Source of the DNA: Candidatus Doudnabacteria bacterium
GTDB taxonomy: Bacteria; Patescibacteriota; Doudnabacteria; UBA920
Assembly: GCA_038203095.1 (NCBI GenBank)
Contig: JBBREH010000001.1
Span: 431 to 64,430 of the forward strand
Length of the DNA stretch: 64,000 nt
Reading direction: 5' to 3'
In this document: one piece after another, positions 2,081 to 29,362 of the stretch
Layout: each line of letters begins with the position of its first letter
Numbering within the stretch: the first letter of the stretch is position 1
Program-made: the position numbers and the translations under genes
The notes under the pieces: model-generated
Seen by the model: only the letters and a program-made list of their open reading frames with translations
Told to the model about the DNA's origin: nothing
Databases searched by the model: none

Positions 2081-3007
2081 ATGCCTGAACTGCCAGAAGT
2101 TCAAACTATAGTTAGCGAGCTTAATAGGAAATTAAAAAACCGAACTATAAAGTCGGTTGATGTTTTCGCGCCCAAAATGGTTGGGGTGGGTTCGGCGACG
2201 CTCTCTCCTAAAAGAACAGCCTCCGCCCAAACAGTAGAAAAATTTAAAATGCTGATAACTGGCAAAAGGTTTTTATCAGTACGCCGTCGCGCCAAGCTTT
2301 TAATTTTTAAGTTGTCGGGAGAGCTTTTTATGCTTGTTCATCTTAAAATGACCGGACAATTTATTTTTGAAGATAAAGTTTTGCGGGGCAAAACTTTAGG
2401 GAAATATCGGCTTTTGAATAAACTTAATGCGCCGTTAGTTCAGCTACCTTGCAAGCATACGCATGTGATTTTTAATTTTGTCGATCAGACAAAATTATAT
2501 TTTAACGATGTCCGCAAGTTCGGTTATTTAAAGTTGGTGCGCGTTGATGAAATATCCTCTGTTCGTGAACTAAACGAATACGGTCCTGAGCCGTTGGGTA
2601 AATATTTTACCGCCGGACACTTTTTGACGGCCGTCAAAAAGTGTCCGGACAGAAAAATCAAACAAATAATTATGGATAATAAAATTGTGGTGGGGATAGG
2701 CAATATTTACAGCGACGAAATTTTATTTCATGCCGGGGTCCGGCCGACGCGCTTGGTTAAATTACTGTCCGATGTTGAAATTAGCAGTATTTATAAATGG
2801 ATAAAGCCGGTATTAATAAAAGGCATAAAAGCCAAAGGTTCCAGCGTTGGCGACTTTGTCCGTACCGACGGCACCTGGGGCCAAATGGGCAAATTTCACT
2901 TTGTCTACGGACGTAGGGGGCAGAAATGCAAAAAATGTGGTACGACCATCGAATCAGTTAAGCTGGGCGGTCACACAGCTAGTTATTGCCCAAGATGTCA
3001 AGTGTAG
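2081..3007 (+). CDS. fpg: Formamidopyrimidine-DNA glycosylase (Fpg/Nei family)
   Basis: Starts MPELPEV (catalytic Pro2 after Met removal), so the true start is the ATG at 2081 rather than the ORF-track start. C-terminal zinc finger CPRCQ. Confidence 0.8.
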   Translation: MPELPEVQTIVSELNRKLKNRTIKSVDVFAPKMVGVGSATLSPKRTASAQTVEKFKMLITGKRFLSVRRRAKLLIFKLSGELFMLVHLKMTGQFIFEDKVLRGKTLGKYRLLNKLNAPLVQLPCKHTHVIFNFVDQTKLYFNDVRKFGYLKLVRVDEISSVRELNEYGPEPLGKYFTAGHFLTAVKKCPDRKIKQIIMDNKIVVGIGNIYSDEILFHAGVRPTRLVKLLSDVEISSIYKWIKPVLIKGIKAKGSSVGDFVRTDGTWGQMGKFHFVYGRRGQKCKKCGTTIESVKLGGHTASYCPRCQV

Positions 3008-3008
3008 A

Positions 3009-3061
3009 GTGCCCATTTATAGGCTATCTGAGACGCCGATGAATCGGCACGCTACACATAT
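3009..3061. repeat. 53-nt repeat element, copy 1 (intergenic, directly after the fpg stop)
   Basis: About 83 percent identical to 22366..22418. Contains a GCCGAT..ATCGGC hairpin and the shared core ATCGGCACGCTACAC. Confidence 0.7.
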
Positions 3062-8563: not shown

Positions 8564-9342
8564 ACTTGGTCACGTAAAAAAACGTGTGTTTTGCATCTTA
8601 AAAATTCAATATTTAAGCAGTGTGTTTTTGCAGGAGAACATACGACTTTTATACATACCCTTACACCAATCTTCGCCAGAGCGATAAGCAATTACAGTAA
8701 AGTTGACCACATTATAAAGCGACTGATTATTTTAACGAGCATAAGTTTTGTTGGAGATTGGCGTGAGGGTATTATTCACAGATACGTAGAAGGGAACAGA
8801 TTGCACAGATAAATTATCTGCGTCATCTGTATTAATCTGCGCATCCGCGATCTCATGCTCCTAATTTCGTTAACCCGGATTGGGGGCGCTAGAGCCTGTT
8901 TAATAAATTGCTTTCGAAGCGAAATTTCAGAATTTTGAGCGAAAAACTTAAAGAAAAGCGAGGCGACACCAGGGCGTGTCGGTGAGCTTTGATGAAAGTT
9001 TTGCAGCCAAAATTCTGAAATTGCAGCCGAAATGAATTTATTGAACGGGCTCATACTAAAGCCGTATACTAAAGTACTAGAATAATATTACTATGATTCT
9101 CCTGTACTCAAGTCTACGGTTTTTAATTTTTACAAAAGTTTTGAGCTTGTATAGTTTTGCTTGTTTGCTACAAAATTAATTCTAAACATTTTCGTAGTCA
9201 TTTGTAGTGTGCTGATTTTGTAGATTTGTAGTTTGTTTCTGCAAACGTGGGCCATAAGGAGGGCAATTTATATTTTCCGTCCGAGACGGATAGGCCTTAT
9301 TACTTAGACCCACACTTGTGAAAATAAACATAGTTATTGATT

Positions 9343-9376
9343 CCCTCCCCTTGAGGGGGAGGGCTAGGGAGGGGTG
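9343..9376. repeat. G/C-rich palindromic element (intergenic copy)
   Basis: CCCTCCCC-TTGA-GGGGGAGGGCTAGGGAGGGGTG, reverse-complement match to 21724..21765. Confidence 0.65.
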
Positions 9377-9660
9377 AATTAAAGAAATCAAAGGGGGCAA
9401 CAAAGCCTCTTTTTCTTTGTCCCGTTAGCATTTATCGGCTATCGGCTAAAATTATTTTGGCTATGAGTTAAAGGCAATCTTCCGGAGCCTGTTTTATAAC
9501 CTCACCTGACCTCCCCTTTAAAAAGGAGAGGGATTAAAAACCGCCCTTGGGCGGATATTTTGTGAAAAAGAGTTTGGCGGTGTAAATATTATTATTTAAA
9601 TTGCCAGTCTCGTTTCCACAAAGCACGGTTTGTGGTAAGTGGGAACGGAAGGAGGCAGGA

Positions 9661-17684: not shown

Positions 17685-17957
17685 TTCGCCGCGACTTCCC
17701 TCCTAAGTCCGCTTAAGGCGGGCGAAAGAGGGGAGAATACAAACAAGGTGAAGGAGCTTAAGAATATGACTAAGGGGAAAAAGTAATAATAAGCCTACAA
17801 TGGGCATCATTGCATATGTAATGATGCCCATTGTATCTGGTCCAATTAATTTTGAATTATTCAGGAATTAAGTCTATAATGACTATAAATCTTCTTGAAA
17901 AAAGCCATTAAGTGAGCAGTGTTTTAAAAGGTAGTGTAATTAATTATATTATTTATT

Positions 17958-20374: not shown

Positions 20375-22084
20375 ATGCAAAAAATGGTGATTAAGGTTGT
20401 AAAGATTATTATTGCCACAGCAATTTTTGCCTGGTTTGGTCTATTTTTGGCGCATAAAATAGATTTAACCACCGCGGATTTAGGCCGGCATATTGTTAAT
20501 GGATCGATAATTTTACACGGATCTTGGGCAGAGAAGTGGGCCGTGCTTAATACCAATTTTTATTCTTATACCTTACCTAATCAGCCATTTGTTAACCATC
20601 ACTGGGGGAGTGGAGTGGTTTTTTATTTAATTTTTTTGGCATTTGGATTTGCGGGGTTGTCTGTATTTTATGTAGGTTTGGGATTGGCGACGTTGTGGTT
20701 ATTTTTTGACGTAGCCAGAAGAGCGAGCAATTTTTGGATATCGTCTGCTGTGACAATTTCTCTAATCCCGTTGCTTTCGGCTCGCGCCGAAGTTCGTCCG
20801 GAAATGTTTACCTATTTTTTTACGGGAGTATTTTTTTGGGTGCTGTGGAAATCGCGGAATGACGCGGAACTTAACGCTGAAAGACGCGGAAGCTATAAGT
20901 TGCTCTGGATTTTGCCTATAATTGTTCTGCTTTGGGTTAATTTGCATATTGGTTTTGTGTTTGGGTTTTTGGTGCTGGGGGCGTTTGGATTGGAAGAAAT
21001 AATAAGGAATTTTCCATTCCGAATGCATCTGAGGAATCTGTTAAATCCAGGAACAGACAGATCCCTCCGTTCGCCCTCGGATGCACTCGGTCTTGGTTGG
21101 GATGGCAAATTACAAAAACTGATTATCATATCGGCGCTTTGCATTCTCGCAGGCTTAATAAATCCTTTTGGCTATAAACTGTTAATTTACCCCGCGCAAA
21201 TTTTTAAGAATTACGGTTATTTGATTGTAGAAAATCAATCCATCCGTTTTTTGGAGCGTCTAAATTTTGTTCAAGGCCAACACTTTTTACTTTTTAAACT
21301 GGCCGTGGCCGGGGTCATTATCAGTTTTATCGGAGTTGCCATAAGGTGGTGGAGAAAGATTGATATCACGATGTTGGTATTAGTCATAATCACAGCCTTT
21401 ATGGCTTATTTGGGAATTCGTAATTTTCCGTCTTTCGCGTTTTTCGCCTTGCCGGCCGCGGCCGGAAATTTGTATTTAATTAAACCGCAAAATCTTCATC
21501 GCGCGTACAAGTATTCGCTGTCAGTTATTCTTATTTTTATTGTAATTATTTGCGCCCAATCCCAGTACCAAACTTTTATGGAAATCAGGCCTGTTTTAGG
21601 TTTTGGTGTTTTGCCCGGTGTTAACCAGTCGGCTGATTTTTACAAGGCTAATAATCTTAAAGGTCCTATATTTAACAATTATGACGTTGGCGGATATTTA
21701 ATTTATCATTTATATCAAAAAAATCACCCCCTCCTAGCCTCCCCCATCAAGGGGGAGGAAGGGGGCACGGACACAAAGCTCTTTGTGGACAACAGGCCGG
21801 AAGCTTATACAACTGATTTTTTTGAAAATTCCTACAAACTGCCGCAAACGGACAGCCAAAAATGGCAGGAACTTGATAACCGGTATAATTTTAACTCCAT
21901 CTTTTTTTCCCACCGCGACTATACCCCGTGGGGTCAGGCGTTTTTAATTTCGCGAATACAGGATCCCACTTGGGCGCCGGTGTTTGTAGACACGTACAAT
22001 ATAATCTTTGTAAAAAGAAACCCACAGAACGCGGATTTAATTAAAAAATATGAACTACCAAAAAGTATGTTTGGCATTAAATAA
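20375..22084 (+). CDS. Polytopic membrane protein, candidate GT-C-type glycosyltransferase
   Basis: At least 12 predicted TM helices, immediately upstream of a Dpm1-like GT2. Contains two in-frame repeat-element insertions (21024..21091, 21724..21765). Confidence 0.45.
   Translation: MQKMVIKVVKIIIATAIFAWFGLFLAHKIDLTTADLGRHIVNGSIILHGSWAEKWAVLNTNFYSYTLPNQPFVNHHWGSGVVFYLIFLAFGFAGLSVFYVGLGLATLWLFFDVARRASNFWISSAVTISLIPLLSARAEVRPEMFTYFFTGVFFWVLWKSRNDAELNAERRGSYKLLWILPIIVLLWVNLHIGFVFGFLVLGAFGLEEIIRNFPFRMHLRNLLNPGTDRSLRSPSDALGLGWDGKLQKLIIISALCILAGLINPFGYKLLIYPAQIFKNYGYLIVENQSIRFLERLNFVQGQHFLLFKLAVAGVIISFIGVAIRWWRKIDITMLVLVIITAFMAYLGIRNFPSFAFFALPAAAGNLYLIKPQNLHRAYKYSLSVILIFIVIICAQSQYQTFMEIRPVLGFGVLPGVNQSADFYKANNLKGPIFNNYDVGGYLIYHLYQKNHPLLASPIKGEEGGTDTKLFVDNRPEAYTTDFFENSYKLPQTDSQKWQELDNRYNFNSIFFSHRDYTPWGQAFLISRIQDPTWAPVFVDTYNIIFVKRNPQNADLIKKYELPKSMFGIK
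21724..21765. repeat. G/C-rich palindromic element (in-frame inside the membrane-protein CDS, opposite orientation)
   Basis: CACCCCCTCCTAGCCTCCCCCATCAAGGGGGAGGAAGGGGG; encodes HPLLASPIKGEEGG. Confidence 0.65.
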
Positions 22085-22200
22085 TTGACAAGATTGAGCA
22101 AGATTTTCATGCCAGAGGCAGATCCACCTTCGGCGGAAAATGATTGACAACATTGGAATGCAATTGTCTTTATAATCTTTTAAATCATGTTAATCAACTT

Positions 22201-22932
22201 ATGAAGCTGTCAATAATCATCCCAGCGCACAATGAAGAAAAAACCATTGCTCAGGTTTTGGAGCAGGTTTTAAAAGTGGATTTGGACGGGTGGGAGAAAG
22301 AGGTGGTTGTGGTGGATGACGGAAGTAGTGACGGGACAGGTACTATCCTGGAAAAGATTTGTAGCGTGCCCATTTATGGGCATTCCGGATCGCCGATAAA
22401 TCGGCACGCTACACTTATTAGCCACCCCACCAATCTCGGCAAAGGCGCGGCAATAAAATCGGCTTTGGTCAAAGCCACCGGGGATTACGTAATTATTCAG
22501 GACGCGGATTTGGAGTATAATCCGGGCGATATCGTTAATCTTTTATCGTTTATCCCTGACGATGGAAAACATCGGATTGCCATTTTTGGCAAGCGCGGTT
22601 ATAAAGCTTATCCGGAGCGCGGCTTCCACTATGTTATTGGCGCGTGGTTGCTTACTACTTTTTATAACTTGCTTTATGGCCAGCAACTTACGGATCTTTA
22701 CACTGGCTACAAATTAATCCCGACACGCATTTTTAAAGAACTAAACATTGAGTCCAACGGTTTTGAATTTGAAGCCGAAGTGGCTTGTAAGCTGGTGAAA
22801 AAAAATGTTATTATAAAGGAAGTAGAAATTAGTTATTTACCCAGAAACAAAGCTCAAGGTAAACATATTCGCTTTGTTGACGCCGTGAAAGGTTTTTGGA
22901 CTATTGTTAAAATTAGGCTATTTAAGAATTGA
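22201..22932 (+). CDS. GT2 glycosyltransferase (polyprenyl-phosphate sugar synthase/Dpm1-like)
   Basis: LSIIIPAHNEE...VVVVDDGSSDGT...DADLEYNP motifs. ATG at 22201. Carries a 53-nt repeat insertion at 22366..22418. Confidence 0.75.
   Translation: MKLSIIIPAHNEEKTIAQVLEQVLKVDLDGWEKEVVVVDDGSSDGTGTILEKICSVPIYGHSGSPINRHATLISHPTNLGKGAAIKSALVKATGDYVIIQDADLEYNPGDIVNLLSFIPDDGKHRIAIFGKRGYKAYPERGFHYVIGAWLLTTFYNLLYGQQLTDLYTGYKLIPTRIFKELNIESNGFEFEAEVACKLVKKNVIIKEVEISYLPRNKAQGKHIRFVDAVKGFWTIVKIRLFKN
22366..22418. repeat. 53-nt repeat element, copy 2 (in-frame inside the GT2 CDS)
   Basis: Matches 3009..3061; encodes VPIYGHSGSPINRHATL inserted before the GKG motif of the GT2. Confidence 0.7.
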
Positions 22933-23905: not shown

Positions 23906-24898
23906 ATGGATAGAAATTTAGCTTTGGAATTTGTGCGGGTAACTGAGGCGGCGGCTATTGCAGCTAGTAAGTGGATAGGCAAGGGTGACGGTAAAAAGGC
24001 TGATGGCGCGGCAGTAGATGAAATGCGGTCGCGTTTTAATCAGATAGATTTTAAAGGCGTGGTGGTAATTGGTGAGGGGCAGAAAGACGAGGCGCCGGAA
24101 CTTTACACCGGGGAGAAGGTGGGACTTGGATGGAAAAACTCCAACCACCCCGGCCTTTCAGGCCACCCCTCCTTGAAAAGGAGGGGAGACTCCGTGTTTG
24201 ACCTTGCTGTTGACCCGCTTGAATGTACCGACAGCGTGGCTTATGGGCGTTATAATGCGATTGCGGTTATTGCGGCCGGAGCGCGGGGCTCGCTTTTAAG
24301 TGCGCCCGATACTTATATGGAAAAGTTGGCGGCCGGGCCAAAGGCTGCTAAAGTAATTAAAATGGGTGCGCCGGTTAAGCTAAACATTGAACGTACGGCC
24401 AAGGCTCTTGGTAAAAAAGTTGGGGATGTTACGGTGTGCATAATGGATAGAGAGCGCCATAAAGATTTAATTGGTCAGGTAAGAAAAATAGGCGCCAGAG
24501 TGCGGCTAATTACAGACGGCGACGTAGCGGGCGGGATAGCAACGTGTATGCCAGAATCGGGGATAGACCTGCTTATGGGCATTGGCGCTTCCGCAGAGGC
24601 AGTTTTGGCCGCCACAGCCATTAAAATTCTGGGTGGGCAAATATTCGCTCGCTTTAACCCAATGAAAGAAGCTCATCATCAATTGTTAAAAAAAGCCGGC
24701 CTTAACGACAAAAAAATTTACTCTGTAAACGACCTGGCCAAAGGTCAAACCCTAACCTTTACCGCCACAGGCATTATTGACGGCCCACTGCTTCAAGGGG
24801 TGAGGGTTGAGGGTAGCTACATTATAACCCATTCGATAGTAATCCGCGGTCAGAGCGGAACAATAAGATATATAACAACGCATCATAAGGAGAAATAG
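23906..24898 (+). CDS. glpX: Fructose-1,6-bisphosphatase class II (GlpX)
   Basis: Collinear with GlpX (LALEFVRVTEAAAIAA...GEGQKDEAPELYTGEKVG...DLAVDP). Carries an extra ~17 aa encoded by a palindromic element at 24149..24190. Confidence 0.85.
   Translation: MDRNLALEFVRVTEAAAIAASKWIGKGDGKKADGAAVDEMRSRFNQIDFKGVVVIGEGQKDEAPELYTGEKVGLGWKNSNHPGLSGHPSLKRRGDSVFDLAVDPLECTDSVAYGRYNAIAVIAAGARGSLLSAPDTYMEKLAAGPKAAKVIKMGAPVKLNIERTAKALGKKVGDVTVCIMDRERHKDLIGQVRKIGARVRLITDGDVAGGIATCMPESGIDLLMGIGASAEAVLAATAIKILGGQIFARFNPMKEAHHQLLKKAGLNDKKIYSVNDLAKGQTLTFTATGIIDGPLLQGVRVEGSYIITHSIVIRGQSGTIRYITTHHKEK
24149..24190. repeat. G/C-rich double hairpin inserted in-frame in glpX
   Basis: GGCC-TTTCA-GGCC followed by CCCCTCCTT-GAAA-AGGAGGGG; encodes PGLSGHPSLKRRGD, which is absent from E. 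coli GlpX at that point. Confidence 0.6.
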
Positions 24899-26389: not shown

Positions 26390-26473
26390 AATAATTGCAG
26401 ATTTGAGATTGCAGATTTTAGAATTACTGCAGTCCGAATCCTAAATCTAAAATCCTAAATCTAAAATTTTATT

Positions 26474-27181: not shown

Positions 27182-27191
27182 GGGGAAAGGA

Positions 27192-27649
27192 GACAAGCAA
27201 ACAAGCAAACAAGGAGACAAATAAATAGCTTTAAAGATATATTTGCTTGGCAAAAGGCTCATTTATTAGCCTTGGAAGTTTACAGACTGTCAAAAAAATA
27301 TCCGAAAGACGAGTTATATGGATTGACCAGCCAAACTCGTAGAGCAGTGGTTTCTGTGGCTTCAAATTTGGTTGAAGGTTTTAAGCGAGCAGACAATAAG
27401 GAAGATTCACATTTTTGTAATATAGCTCAGGCTTCTTTAGAGGAAGTTAGATATCAGTTACTTCTGGCGAGAGATCTGGGTTATATTAGTAATCTTGAAT
27501 GTGAAAAGACGGAGCAATTATCCGAAGAAGTTTCTAAGTTGATTTATTTGTGGATGAAAAGTAAGAAATAAGTAAGCAAGGAGACAGGGAGTCAAGCAAT
27601 TAAGGATACAAGCTTAAATGCGGAGCGCTTGTTTGCTTGTTTGCTTGTC
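27192..27649. mobile_element. IR-flanked cassette carrying a second four-helix-bundle protein gene, between the LOG gene and tal
   Basis: Perfect 22-nt inverted repeats GACAAGCAAACAAGCAAACAAG at 27192..27213 and 27628..27649. Confidence 0.6.
27272..27571 (+). CDS. Four-helix-bundle protein (23S rRNA IVS protein family), start uncertain
   Basis: YGLTSQTRRAVVSVASNLVEG motif. The family-typical N-terminus (FAWQKAH) extends in frame upstream to 27182 with no ATG/GTG; only the TTG at 27272 or an ATA is available. Confidence 0.6.
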   Translation: MEVYRLSKKYPKDELYGLTSQTRRAVVSVASNLVEGFKRADNKEDSHFCNIAQASLEEVRYQLLLARDLGYISNLECEKTEQLSEEVSKLIYLWMKSKK

Positions 27650-27668
27650 CCCCTTAACATACTTTCCT

Positions 27669-28505
27669 ATGACAACAAAAATCTTTCTCGACTCAGGCGA
27701 CCCCGTTGAAACCAAACAAGCTTTAAAGTTGCTTGGGTTTTTGGACGGGCAAACTACTAATCCGTCGTTAATTGCTAAAAATCCGGCCACCAGCGGAAAA
27801 AAATTTACTGAAGATGAACTGCTAAAATTTTACCGTGGTATAGTTACAGAAGTCTCGTCGCTCATTCCAAAAGGCAGTGTTTCAATAGAAGTTTATGCGG
27901 ACAAAAATATGTTGGCAAATGAAATGCTGGCGCAGGGTAGGGAGTTTAATACTTGGATTCCGAACGCCCATATTAAATATCCGACTACGACCGAAGGTTT
28001 AAAGGCAGCTGAAATAAGCGTGAAAGAGGGAATGAGGGTAAATATGACGCTAGTTTTTAGTCAGGAGCAGGCTGCTGCAGTTTATGCCGCAACAAAAGGA
28101 GCATTGCGCGGACAAGTTTATTTGTCGCCATTCGTGGGTAGGCTGGATGACCGTGGGGAGAATGGCATGGATTTTGTTTCTAACGTCGTAAAAATGTATG
28201 AACAAGGCGACGGACATGTGGAAATTTTGTCAGCTTCAATTAGGTCAAGCGAACATATGAGAAAGGCGATTGAACAGGGTAGTGATATTATTACGGCACC
28301 GCTAAAAGTTTTAAAAGAGTGGGTAGAGGCGGGATCTTCCTCCTCCCCTCGCCAGGGGAGGATGCCCATAGGACAGGAGAGTTTGCTGCCAATTCTTTAT
28401 CAGGATATCAGCTTAAACAAGCCCTGGCAGGAATATAATTTACAGCATAATTTAACTAATGCCGGTTTGGAAAAATTTACAAGTGACTGGAATTCCTTAT
28501 TATAA
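27669..28505 (+). CDS. tal: Transaldolase (Fsa/TalC-type)
   Basis: IFLDSGDP...TTNPSL motifs. ATG at 27669. C-terminal region carries an extra segment that includes the palindromic element at 28342..28361. Confidence 0.8.
   Translation: MTTKIFLDSGDPVETKQALKLLGFLDGQTTNPSLIAKNPATSGKKFTEDELLKFYRGIVTEVSSLIPKGSVSIEVYADKNMLANEMLAQGREFNTWIPNAHIKYPTTTEGLKAAEISVKEGMRVNMTLVFSQEQAAAVYAATKGALRGQVYLSPFVGRLDDRGENGMDFVSNVVKMYEQGDGHVEILSASIRSSEHMRKAIEQGSDIITAPLKVLKEWVEAGSSSSPRQGRMPIGQESLLPILYQDISLNKPWQEYNLQHNLTNAGLEKFTSDWNSLL
28342..28361. repeat. G/C-rich hairpin inserted in-frame in the transaldolase gene
   Basis: CCTCCCC-TCGCCA-GGGGAGG within a C-terminal extra segment (SSSSPRQGRMPIG). Confidence 0.55.
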
Positions 28506-28513
28506 CATAAAAT

Positions 28514-29248
28514 CCACTTGGAAGAGGGGACACCTCTTCCAAGTGGGACTAATCTATTAATAAAGCTTGAATTTGTTTTTGTTTTTCTATTAGAGGACCG
28601 CTTTCTTCTACAAATTTTTTATAATCGTTAACCGTCTTAAATTTATCCATAATAACTCGCTTATCACAAAGGCCATCGTTTCTTTTTTCAATGTAATCCG
28701 AATAACTACTAAAGGCATATTCATCCGGAGTTTTTACAATCCCGGCCACAGTTGGGTTTTGATGAATATAGGCCGAAAGCCAAGTTAAATAAGATTCATT
28801 TTCTACCGGTATGGCTTTGAATGCTCCTTGAAATAAATGGCCCACATGGTCGTATTTTTTTTGAAAGTAGACTGCGTAGCCGGTGCATAGTTTTTGGATC
28901 AGTTTGCTAATTTTAATTTCGTTGTTTTGTCTTATTAATAAATGAAAATGGTTAGGCATAAGACAATAGCAGATTAAAGAAAATGCATCTGTAGGCAATT
29001 GCTTTCTTTTGTATTTTATATCAAGAGAGCTTGGGCTAACTTCCAATTCATTTTCTGGGAATAAATTTTCTCTTAATCGATGAATAAAAATTCCATAATC
29101 TTGGGGATCAAAAAAAATATCATTTTTACCATTACCTCGATTAAAGACATGATAATAATTTCCCGCAGTAAAAGTTTTGTAATCACGATAACGCATAATC
29201 ATATTATACCATAAAATTAACTTGGAAGAGGGGACACCTCTTCCAGTT
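28514..29248. mobile_element. IS200/IS605-like or RAYT-like unit: Y1 transposase flanked by near-identical palindromic hairpins
   Basis: CCACTTGGAAGAGG-GGACA-CCTCTTCCAAGTGG at 28514..28547 and AACTTGGAAGAGG-GGACA-CCTCTTCCAGTT at 29219..29248; 40 nt from tRNA-Pro. Confidence 0.6.
28549..29202 (-). CDS. HUH-Y1 transposase (IS200-like / REP-associated tyrosine transposase-like)
   Basis: YHVFNRGN..IFFDPQDY; HUH motif in LMPNHFHLLI; downstream Tyr (YIHQNP). Probable start at M68 of the track ORF, because the upstream part overlaps tRNA-Pro. Confidence 0.65.
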   Translation of the reverse strand: MIMRYRDYKTFTAGNYYHVFNRGNGKNDIFFDPQDYGIFIHRLRENLFPENELEVSPSSLDIKYKRKQLPTDAFSLICYCLMPNHFHLLIRQNNEIKISKLIQKLCTGYAVYFQKKYDHVGHLFQGAFKAIPVENESYLTWLSAYIHQNPTVAGIVKTPDEYAFSSYSDYIEKRNDGLCDKRVIMDKFKTVNDYKKFVEESGPLIEKQKQIQALLID

Positions 29249-29288
29249 GTGCAAGTTGGTTGGAAATGGTACACTTTATCAAGTATTT

Positions 29289-29362
29289 CGGGCTGTAGTA
29301 TACCGGTAGTACGTCTGCTTTGGGAGCAGATAGACTGGGTTCGATTCCCAGCAGCCCGACCA
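29289..29362 (+). tRNA. tRNA-Pro (anticodon TGG), CCA encoded
   Basis: Acceptor CGGGCTG/CAGCCCG; anticodon stem TCTGC/GCAGA with loop TTTGGGA; T-arm CTGGG-TTCGATT-CCCAG. Confidence 0.8.

Follow-up and report, generated by a model that had tools for sequence, protein, structure and literature searches.

A 64,000-nucleotide stretch of the Candidatus Doudnabacteria contig JBBREH010000001.1 (hereafter, the window) carries a short transaldolase gene with a perfect, in-frame hairpin in its C-terminal coding region, and the best explanation for this hairpin is that it forms the core of one element in a family of nested palindromic repeats dispersed through a Doudnabacteria-like lineage of the Candidate Phyla Radiation (CPR). 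By nature, the family would be a selfish or neutral palindromic repeat with stop-codon-free arms that is tolerated in permissive protein loops, of the kind represented by the Rickettsia palindromic elements (RPE) and the intragenic repetitive extragenic palindromic (REP) sequences, and to this reading we give a probability of roughly 0.6. The gene and its hairpin are located as follows.

27669-28505, plus strand: transaldolase of the short Fsa/TalC type, 278 aa (Pfam TAL_FSA, 1.4e-44)
28341-28362, pyrimidine arm first on either strand: main hairpin TCCTCCCCT-CGCC-AGGGGAGGA, with a perfect 9-bp stem and a 4-nt loop, encoding S225-R231

The hairpin consists of the 20-mer CCTCCCCTCGCCAGGGGAGG (28342-28361) and one extra pair, which together give the 9-bp stem, and it is read in frame as ...PLKVLKEWVEAGSSSSPRQGRMPIGQESLLPILYQ... 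in the TAL_FSA open reading frame (ORF) ending at 28505, which confirms what a sequence-only reading of this DNA had proposed for the transaldolase C-terminus. As the exact 20-mer is present once in the window (0.00 expected in shuffles of it), a simple exact repeat is ruled out. When we defined a hairpin class by an all-pyrimidine, C-rich 5' arm, a perfect stem of at least 7 bp, and a loop of 3-9 nt, the window was found to contain four members (at 9343, 21738, 24166, and 28341) against 0.02 expected from 100 dinucleotide shuffles, and the mirror class, with the purine arm first, had none in the same 64 kb. Because the reverse complement of such a palindrome again starts with its pyrimidine arm, the polarity belongs to the element itself. 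The anomaly, in a window of about 40% GC, is a C-tract followed by a G-tract rather than extra stability; the folding energy of the 71-nt region is ordinary for its own composition (z = -0.94) and was not used as evidence. Moreover, the hairpin resembles no signal that we looked for: there is no U-tract of an intrinsic terminator (the sequence 3' of it is ATGCCCATAGG on the plus and GGAAGATCC on the minus strand), the GTAG/CGTC tag is absent from its flanks (...CTTCC and TGCCC...), and Rfam at the gathering threshold gave no family at the element and only two tRNAs in the whole window.

Synonymous-codon resampling of AGSSSSPRQGRMPIGQ under the window's codon usage, which covers the transaldolase hairpin only, produced a stem of at least 9 bp in 3 of 20,000 trials (P ~1.5e-4). 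Since peptide and codon usage so rarely give rise to such a stem, its complementarity is a property of the DNA level, and this supports the hairpin being a nucleic-acid-level feature that is translated in frame. An ordinary flexible Pro/Ser/Gly-rich linker, selected at the protein level and with only incidental complementarity in its DNA, would agree with the disorder that AlphaFold2 predicts for the region and with a length that is fairly constant across the subfamily, but it has to contend with this P value, with the same DNA family being read in three phases and both orientations as unrelated peptides, and with a peptide that is not conserved among relatives. We regard a purely protein-level explanation as highly improbable and close to excluded.

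The hairpin does not stand alone, and while its core is as the sequence-only reading had described it, the size given there was too small. On the minus strand, antisense to the transaldolase gene and covering the whole hypervariable linker of the protein (codons 223-239), it is part of a composite with a second, smaller hairpin.

28336-28386, minus strand: composite element of about 51 nt (5' box AAACTCTCC, small hairpin, A, main hairpin, purine-rich tail), encoding residues 223-239
28364-28374, minus strand: small 4-bp hairpin of the composite, GTCC-TAT-GGGC, with one T-G pair (family consensus GCCC-TTC-GGGC)

From 5' to 3', the architecture of the family comprises a box (TCRACCYCTCC), an optional GCCC-TTC-GGGC hairpin, an A, the main hairpin CCCTCCCCT-N3-5-AGGGGAGGG, and a purine-rich tail. 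A covariance model of it (R1) was trained on seven copies, none from the window, though four of these had been found via the window's own 20-mer, which makes the hairpin share of the score circular; the extra ~26 bits at 28336-28386, which come from the flank and small hairpin and on the minus strand only, are independent of this circularity. The matches of R1 in the window were these.

28336-28386, minus strand: transaldolase copy, 52.4 bits, E 1.3e-13, full length (model positions 1-51)
28341-28362, plus strand: the bare transaldolase hairpin only, 26.8 bits, E 4.2e-6
24141-24191, plus strand: GlpX copy, 27.3 bits, E 2.9e-6, sense and in frame
21724-21764, plus strand: third copy, 20.1 bits, E 3.6e-4, without the small hairpin, in frame in a 569-aa ORF (20375-22084) with no Pfam match
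9338-9378, minus strand: fourth copy, 18.9 bits, E 8.4e-4, without the small hairpin, apparently intergenic

R1 thereby matches all four hairpins of the window at full length, in keeping with the earlier suggestion that the same class of element occurs elsewhere in it, and as one model matches both the transaldolase and the GlpX copy full length, their membership of the same family is supported. The reverse complement of 28325-28395 aligns without gaps to copies from metagenomes and related genomes (alignment A4), and a manual count from this alignment gave 78% identity over ~51 nt between the transaldolase copy and an unrelated metagenome copy (L133). In a metagenome scan with the 20-mer, about 12 low-GC contigs were informative among the matches listed, and low-GC contigs have TTCGACCTCTCC 5' of the hairpin, often along with a small hairpin, GCCC-TKC-GGGC. 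The family consensus, unpaired 5' box included, is conserved across species and habitats. As a plain pattern with up to two mismatches, the 5' box TCGACCTCTCC is not enriched in the window (7 found against 4.6 expected), and degenerate boxes were recovered by the covariance model only. Many copies also have outer arms, ACCTCTCCC...GGGAGAGGT, which by inspection are degenerate in the transaldolase copy of the window (four Watson-Crick pairs, two wobble pairs, and one mismatch of seven).

Two further sets of sequences should be mentioned here. Imperfect pyrimidine-then-purine hairpins, apparently intergenic, lie at 9510-9533 (CCTCCCCTTT/AAAAAGGAGAGGGA) and 17695-17737 (CTTCCCTCCT...GAAAGAGGGGAGAA), and these may be decayed family members or terminators; the former scores only 8.5 bits with R1. 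The exact 20-mer itself is present in at least 120 metagenome contigs (L085-L204), mostly of 59-63% GC and many from human gut assemblies, and the high-GC gut contigs among the matches listed share a conserved but unrelated context, ttttcctctcag-hairpin-tggcacggcgaagccgtgacggagagg, which could mark a leader sequence or a repeat that belongs to a different group of organisms.

That a second metabolic gene of the window has the element, as the sequence-only reading claimed, was borne out by the gene for the GlpX fructose-1,6-bisphosphatase (23906-24898; Pfam 9.9e-120), which carries CCCCTCCTT-GAA-AAGGAGGGG at 24166-24186. Here, the loop reads LGWKNSNHPGLSGHPSLKRRGDSVF (25 aa) in the window against TGKGPAL (7 aa) in uninserted orthologues, a net gain of 18 aa, and the stretch from ELY to DPLE has 42 residues rather than the 24 that are conserved in the latter; no target-site duplication is evident in this comparison. 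Among four species that carry the element at this site, six of the nine main-stem pairs have changed at both bases while pairing stays at 100%, a result reached by none of 500 shuffles. The orthologous insertion in one related genome (L004) is identical to that of the window at 46 of 48 nt, with the two differences compensating each other in a single base pair of the small hairpin, T-A in one and C-G in the other (GGCCT-TTC-AGGCC against GGCCC-TTC-GGGCC), whereas the third positions at conserved residues are identical gene-wide in just 128 of 257 cases (50%). Our own binomial calculation for the 15 of 16 third positions that are identical gave P ~3e-4. In other species, the same GlpX loop holds a GTAG-tagged REP (L082, L009, L011, and L020) or has a third element lodged within the loop of the hairpin. 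In the GlpX gene of L007 (714-787), a 33-nt segment is nested in the loop of CCTTCCCCC...GGGGGAAGG.

These GlpX data speak for a functional nucleic-acid structure that is kept by selection within genes, and they are joined by the transaldolase stem, with seven of nine pairs invariant over six species and loops and flanks that differ, and by the conserved consensus with its unpaired 5' box. Such a structure could be a messenger RNA or single-stranded DNA motif to which a conserved protein binds, a hairpin that slows ribosomes between folding units and hides a Shine-Dalgarno-like GGAGG of its own, or a REPIN-like replicator (REPIN, REP doublet forming a hairpin) that stays in step with its transposase. 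In its fullest form, the family would be a conserved polar two-hairpin signal, almost only inside essential genes, that is kept by compensatory evolution through recognition by a conserved host or transposase protein, either as a vertically inherited, REPIN-like replicator or as a regulatory structure, with the surface loops of proteins as its niche; this, too, we think improbable. Against a functional structure, the closest relatives of both the window transaldolase and the window GlpX lack the element and keep the ancestral loop, which marks it as dispensable, and the same loops accept unrelated elements. Moreover, covariation at the transaldolase site amounts to one event, the GlpX set may represent independent insertions instead of descent, and no Rfam family, U-tract, or other known signal is found at the element. 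The element also occurs in both orientations relative to transcription, which an mRNA signal with a polar box would not tolerate. Taken together, we consider a selected structure unlikely.

For the host protein itself, the start is probably the ATG at 27669, since the homologues have only a few residues ahead of IFLDSGDP and the 5' end of the longer ORF (from 27618) falls within an inverted repeat. K103 lines up with the VK(L/I)P-motif lysine, as expected for the Schiff-base lysine of the family, and, like D8 and E74, it is invariant in the homologue alignment (A1). The score with the NCBIfam equivalog TIGR00875 (146.7) is below the cut-off (245.95), which points to a divergent transaldolase subfamily. 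In a Foldseek comparison, the barrel superposes on 1vpx, 3r8r, and 1wx0 at root mean square deviations of 1.8-3.1 Å. The AlphaFold2 model (from A1) has a mean predicted local distance difference test (pLDDT) score of 93.3, and its sole stretch below 50 comprises residues 226-235, within a coil at 221-239. The element is thus predicted to lie in a disordered surface loop, one into which the hairpin residues 225-231 fall, and judging from the model the enzyme looks intact, with its barrel and catalytic residues untouched.

What sets this protein apart from the solved short transaldolases is a longer segment, which is not to be equated with the element.

28323-28439, plus strand: subfamily-specific 39-aa segment (residues 219-257), absent from solved short transaldolases

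The Bacillus subtilis enzyme (3r8r) aligns to residues 5-216 and 259-275 with nothing between, and that of Thermus thermophilus (1wx0) to residues 5-218 and 258-276, and hence the claim that B. subtilis Tal lacks the segment is correct. The sequence-only reading had also tied a stretch of about 40 residues to the hairpin, and this holds for residues 223-239 but not for the rest, as the best 120 homologues (all ~270-316 aa, and Doudnabacteria, Wildermuthbacteria, or Patescibacteria where a source is named) all contain the segment. Its second half (LKPIPYQEIxLxKPWQEYNI) is conserved in relatives without the hairpin, a pattern which that reading had named as contrary to its own proposal, whereas the first ~16 residues are hypervariable among 115 homologues and their linker peptide is not conserved. 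By these sequence comparisons, the segment is a trait of the transaldolase subfamily, and the element accounts for its residues 223-239 only. The linker region has a modal length of 25 aa (52 of the 115 homologues) against 27 aa in the window, and with only two residues gained, the element must be seen as occupying or replacing a variable linker rather than adding 40 aa.

Among the relatives, which comprised 80 related genome loci and three further contigs, hairpins of the class recur at the transaldolase linker in 11 (L002, L003, L004, L011, L017, L018, L047, L068, L081, L082, and L084), with at least five different stem sequences among the other species. Six species, the window included, share the frame (Y)CC TCC CCT NNN NAG GGG AGG (R). 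Covariation at this site is weak, with a single compensatory pair (T-A in the window for C-G) that 88 of 500 shuffles also reach. In a neighbour-joining tree, the window protein groups with two hairpin-bearing proteins, and the remaining carriers are dispersed over the tree, next to sisters whose linkers are unrelated; the resolution is too poor for counting gains and losses. We dropped the idea that all variant linkers are inserted elements, since the SSEKLKVES and SDKLQVTS types look like ordinary homologous variants.

The near-constant linker length also fits with palindromes that were not inserted ready-made but that template switching or quasi-palindrome correction during replication creates, and keeps perfect, on the spot within a linker of low constraint. 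Arm-to-arm templated correction would predict perfect stems and double compensatory changes with no one-sided intermediates, as is observed, and recombination between arms would be expected to flip the loop, which in the window copy is inverted relative to its flanks when compared with L133 (GGCG against CGCC). Nevertheless, an origin in place does not provide for a consensus of ~51 nt, with its unpaired box and small hairpin, that is common to unrelated genes and metagenomes, and it leaves unaccounted for both the clean 18-aa gain in GlpX over a conserved 24-aa stretch and the strict pyrimidine-first polarity (31 hairpins to 1 with the purine arm first in 616 kb of the 80 related loci). We therefore find it quite improbable.

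Several other features of the transaldolase loops deserve mention in their own right. Some of the genes hold two or three elements at different loops (L082 5551-5624, L018 3821-4594, and L068 1420-1661), and the second site in L082, before GDGHVEVL, reads NTPSLNPSPLSASGRGKEGGDGPSFAKASEGK and looks like two adjacent elements. In the L004 gene (4680-4760), a second hairpin (TCCGCC...GGCGGA, peptide LSAEALAKAE) is nested in the element. AT-rich linkers of the KFQISNFKFQN type are found in P0002, P0008, P0019, P0054, P0061, P0085, P0111, and others, and as their DNA is itself palindromic (for instance, GAAATT-tcc-AATTTC in L005), these may belong to another small repeat family that uses the same loop; a similar AT-rich inverted repeat is present in the window at 26401-26467.

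Taking the family as a whole, R1 recognised 30 distinct elements, four in the 64-kb window and 26 in 633 kb of related loci, and 27 of them count as intragenic, being located in stretches of 150 aa or more without a stop, though the choice of loci biases this census toward transaldolase and GlpX. Outside the loops of these two genes, 12 of 15 elements are intragenic. With respect to their host genes, which include transaldolase, GlpX, class-I aldolase, and transketolase, 17 intragenic elements are in sense and 10 in antisense orientation. Perfect-stem hairpins inside ORFs are read in all three phases (14, 10, and 7), and five or six of the six frames are open across most hairpins. A further host, the gene downstream of transaldolase in L017 and L030, likely encodes a sugar-phosphate isomerase, as judged from its GMGGSHLA and SSYSGNTEET motifs only.

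Next to the transaldolase gene is a potential source of mobility.

28549-29205, minus strand: IS200-type Y1 (HUH) transposase gene, 43 nt downstream of transaldolase (Pfam Y1_Tnp, 3.5e-11)
28514-28546 and 29223-29245: hairpins flanking the Y1 transposase gene, of a different family from the transaldolase element

The best NCBIfam match of the transposase is REP_Tyr_transpos, at 46.1 bits and below the cut-off of 80, and five other genomes have the gene in the syntenic position with 67-72% identity, which is consistent with vertical inheritance. In six genomes, the gene is bracketed by hairpins of the TGGAAGAGG-GGACA-CCTCTTCCA type, of which the window has only these two copies, and all that the flanking hairpins have in common with the box of the transaldolase family is an ACCTCT(T)CC stretch. 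This hairpin-recognising Y1/HUH transposase is a rather doubtful candidate for the agent that mobilises the element. The cassette at 28514-29362, with its order of transaldolase, hairpin, Y1 transposase, hairpin, and tRNA-Pro (29289-29362), recurs in L002, L005, L008, L024, and L082. Its two hairpins (CCACTTGGAAGAGG-GGACA-CCTCTTCCAAGTGG and TGGAAGAGG-GGACA-CCTCTTCCA) are direct copies, with compensatory stem variants across genomes.

Elsewhere in the window, GTAG-tagged REP doublets at 22361-22412 and 3004-3055 consist of GTAGCGTGCCCATTTATGGGC, a 10-nt spacer, and an inverted copy (four GTAG REP half-sites in the window against 0.00 expected), with the former in frame in a GT2 glycosyltransferase ORF (22144-22932) as the peptide CSVPIYGHSGSPINRHATL. 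It is this REP that is also found in the GlpX loop of the four relatives named above. Upstream of transaldolase, a 28-nt inverted repeat (27186-27213 and 27628-27655, 93% complementary) brackets a gene for a 23S_rRNA_IVP / bAvd-like four-helix bundle (27272-27571). This repeat resembles the stem of an rRNA intervening sequence, yet it is situated between protein-coding genes, and its right arm overlaps the long ORF call of transaldolase.

Of the systems already known, RPE are about 100-150 bp in size and have one conserved peptide in one frame per family (Ogata et al. 2000, as summarised in PMC10969869). The Doudnabacteria family is similar to them in that its palindromic repeats lie in frame in many unrelated conserved metabolic genes of small, gene-dense genomes and are translated as extra peptide segments of host proteins presumed to be functional. 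In contrast, its members are ~40-55 nt, GC-rich in a genome of 40% GC, and hosted by CPR bacteria, and they are read in three phases and both orientations as unrelated peptides, none of which is conserved. Intragenic REPs, tagged by GTAG/CGTC, have stems of 5-13 bp and loops of 2-20 nt (Di Nocera et al. 2013; PMC3733652), and some copies fall entirely inside the ORFs of known proteins and contribute 20-30 aa to them; the repeats are often tied to Y1 transposase genes (PMC3733652). The present family is likewise a short repeated palindrome (a stem-loop of 22 nt in a composite of 51 nt), but in place of the GTAG/CGTC tag it has the TCRACCYCTCC box and strictly pyrimidine-then-purine arms, and ~90% of the detected copies (27 of 30, in a locus-biased sample) are intragenic, whereas REPs are mostly extragenic.

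When compared with systems of REPINs and REP-associated tyrosine transposases (RAYTs; PMC3116915; bioRxiv 10.1101/2021.07.10.451892), there is a likeness in the single-copy, hairpin-bracketed Y1 transposase gene with its conserved synteny and in repeats that are kept at orthologous positions. On the other hand, the bracketing hairpins are not those of the dispersed transaldolase-type family, the transposase stays under the REP_Tyr_transpos cut-off, and the transaldolase-type element was never seen as an inverted doublet. Miniature inverted-repeat transposable elements are also small, non-autonomous, and able to make in-frame fusions, and the outer arms of our family resemble terminal inverted repeats; in this case, the differences are that no target-site duplication was seen, that the size is at or below the usual range, and that no parent insertion sequence with matching ends was identified. 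A literature search returned no description of this repeat family in CPR bacteria, which is not proof of novelty.

In terms of mechanism, a selfish or neutral repeat would have spread by transposition, and in genomes with very little intergenic DNA, most of its copies would as a result fall in genes. One arm being all pyrimidine and the other all purine, no stop codon is possible within the arms in any of the six frames, and hence copies with a net length divisible by three are read through, adding 14-18 residues of a low-complexity peptide (Pro/Ser/Leu and then Gly/Glu/Arg/Lys). The surviving copies are those in solvent-exposed, disordered loops. In transaldolase, the antisense element forms residues 223-239, which are the hypervariable linker within the C-terminal excursion specific to the subfamily, and for the enzyme it would be passenger DNA.

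Several observations weigh against this account. No transposition was observed and no target-site duplication was seen, the Y1 transposase next door is flanked by a different hairpin family, and several genomes with the family have no such gene at that position. The four window copies are mutually different, with none looking like a recent copy of another, and the orientation at a given site is the same across species, which one old, retained insertion would fit equally well. As the transaldolase linker changes in net length by only two residues, simple insertion is not the whole story there. Lastly, the retention of 46 of 48 nt in the GlpX element, next to 128 of 257 third positions, looks like constraint on nucleotide sequence and is unexpected for a purely neutral passenger. 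It is this conservation at the nucleotide level, together with the consistent orientation per site, that keeps alive both a functional structure and templated correction as rivals to the selfish or neutral repeat.

For the biology of these bacteria, our findings suggest that in extremely gene-dense CPR genomes small palindromic repeats persist mainly inside genes, in the disordered loops of central-metabolism enzymes, where they add and swap short peptide cassettes at the same loops. The loops with elements are non-homologous protein sequence and should be masked in alignments that are used for annotation or phylogeny. Moreover, the nucleotide-level conservation in GlpX raises the question of whether such elements are merely tolerated or actively maintained.

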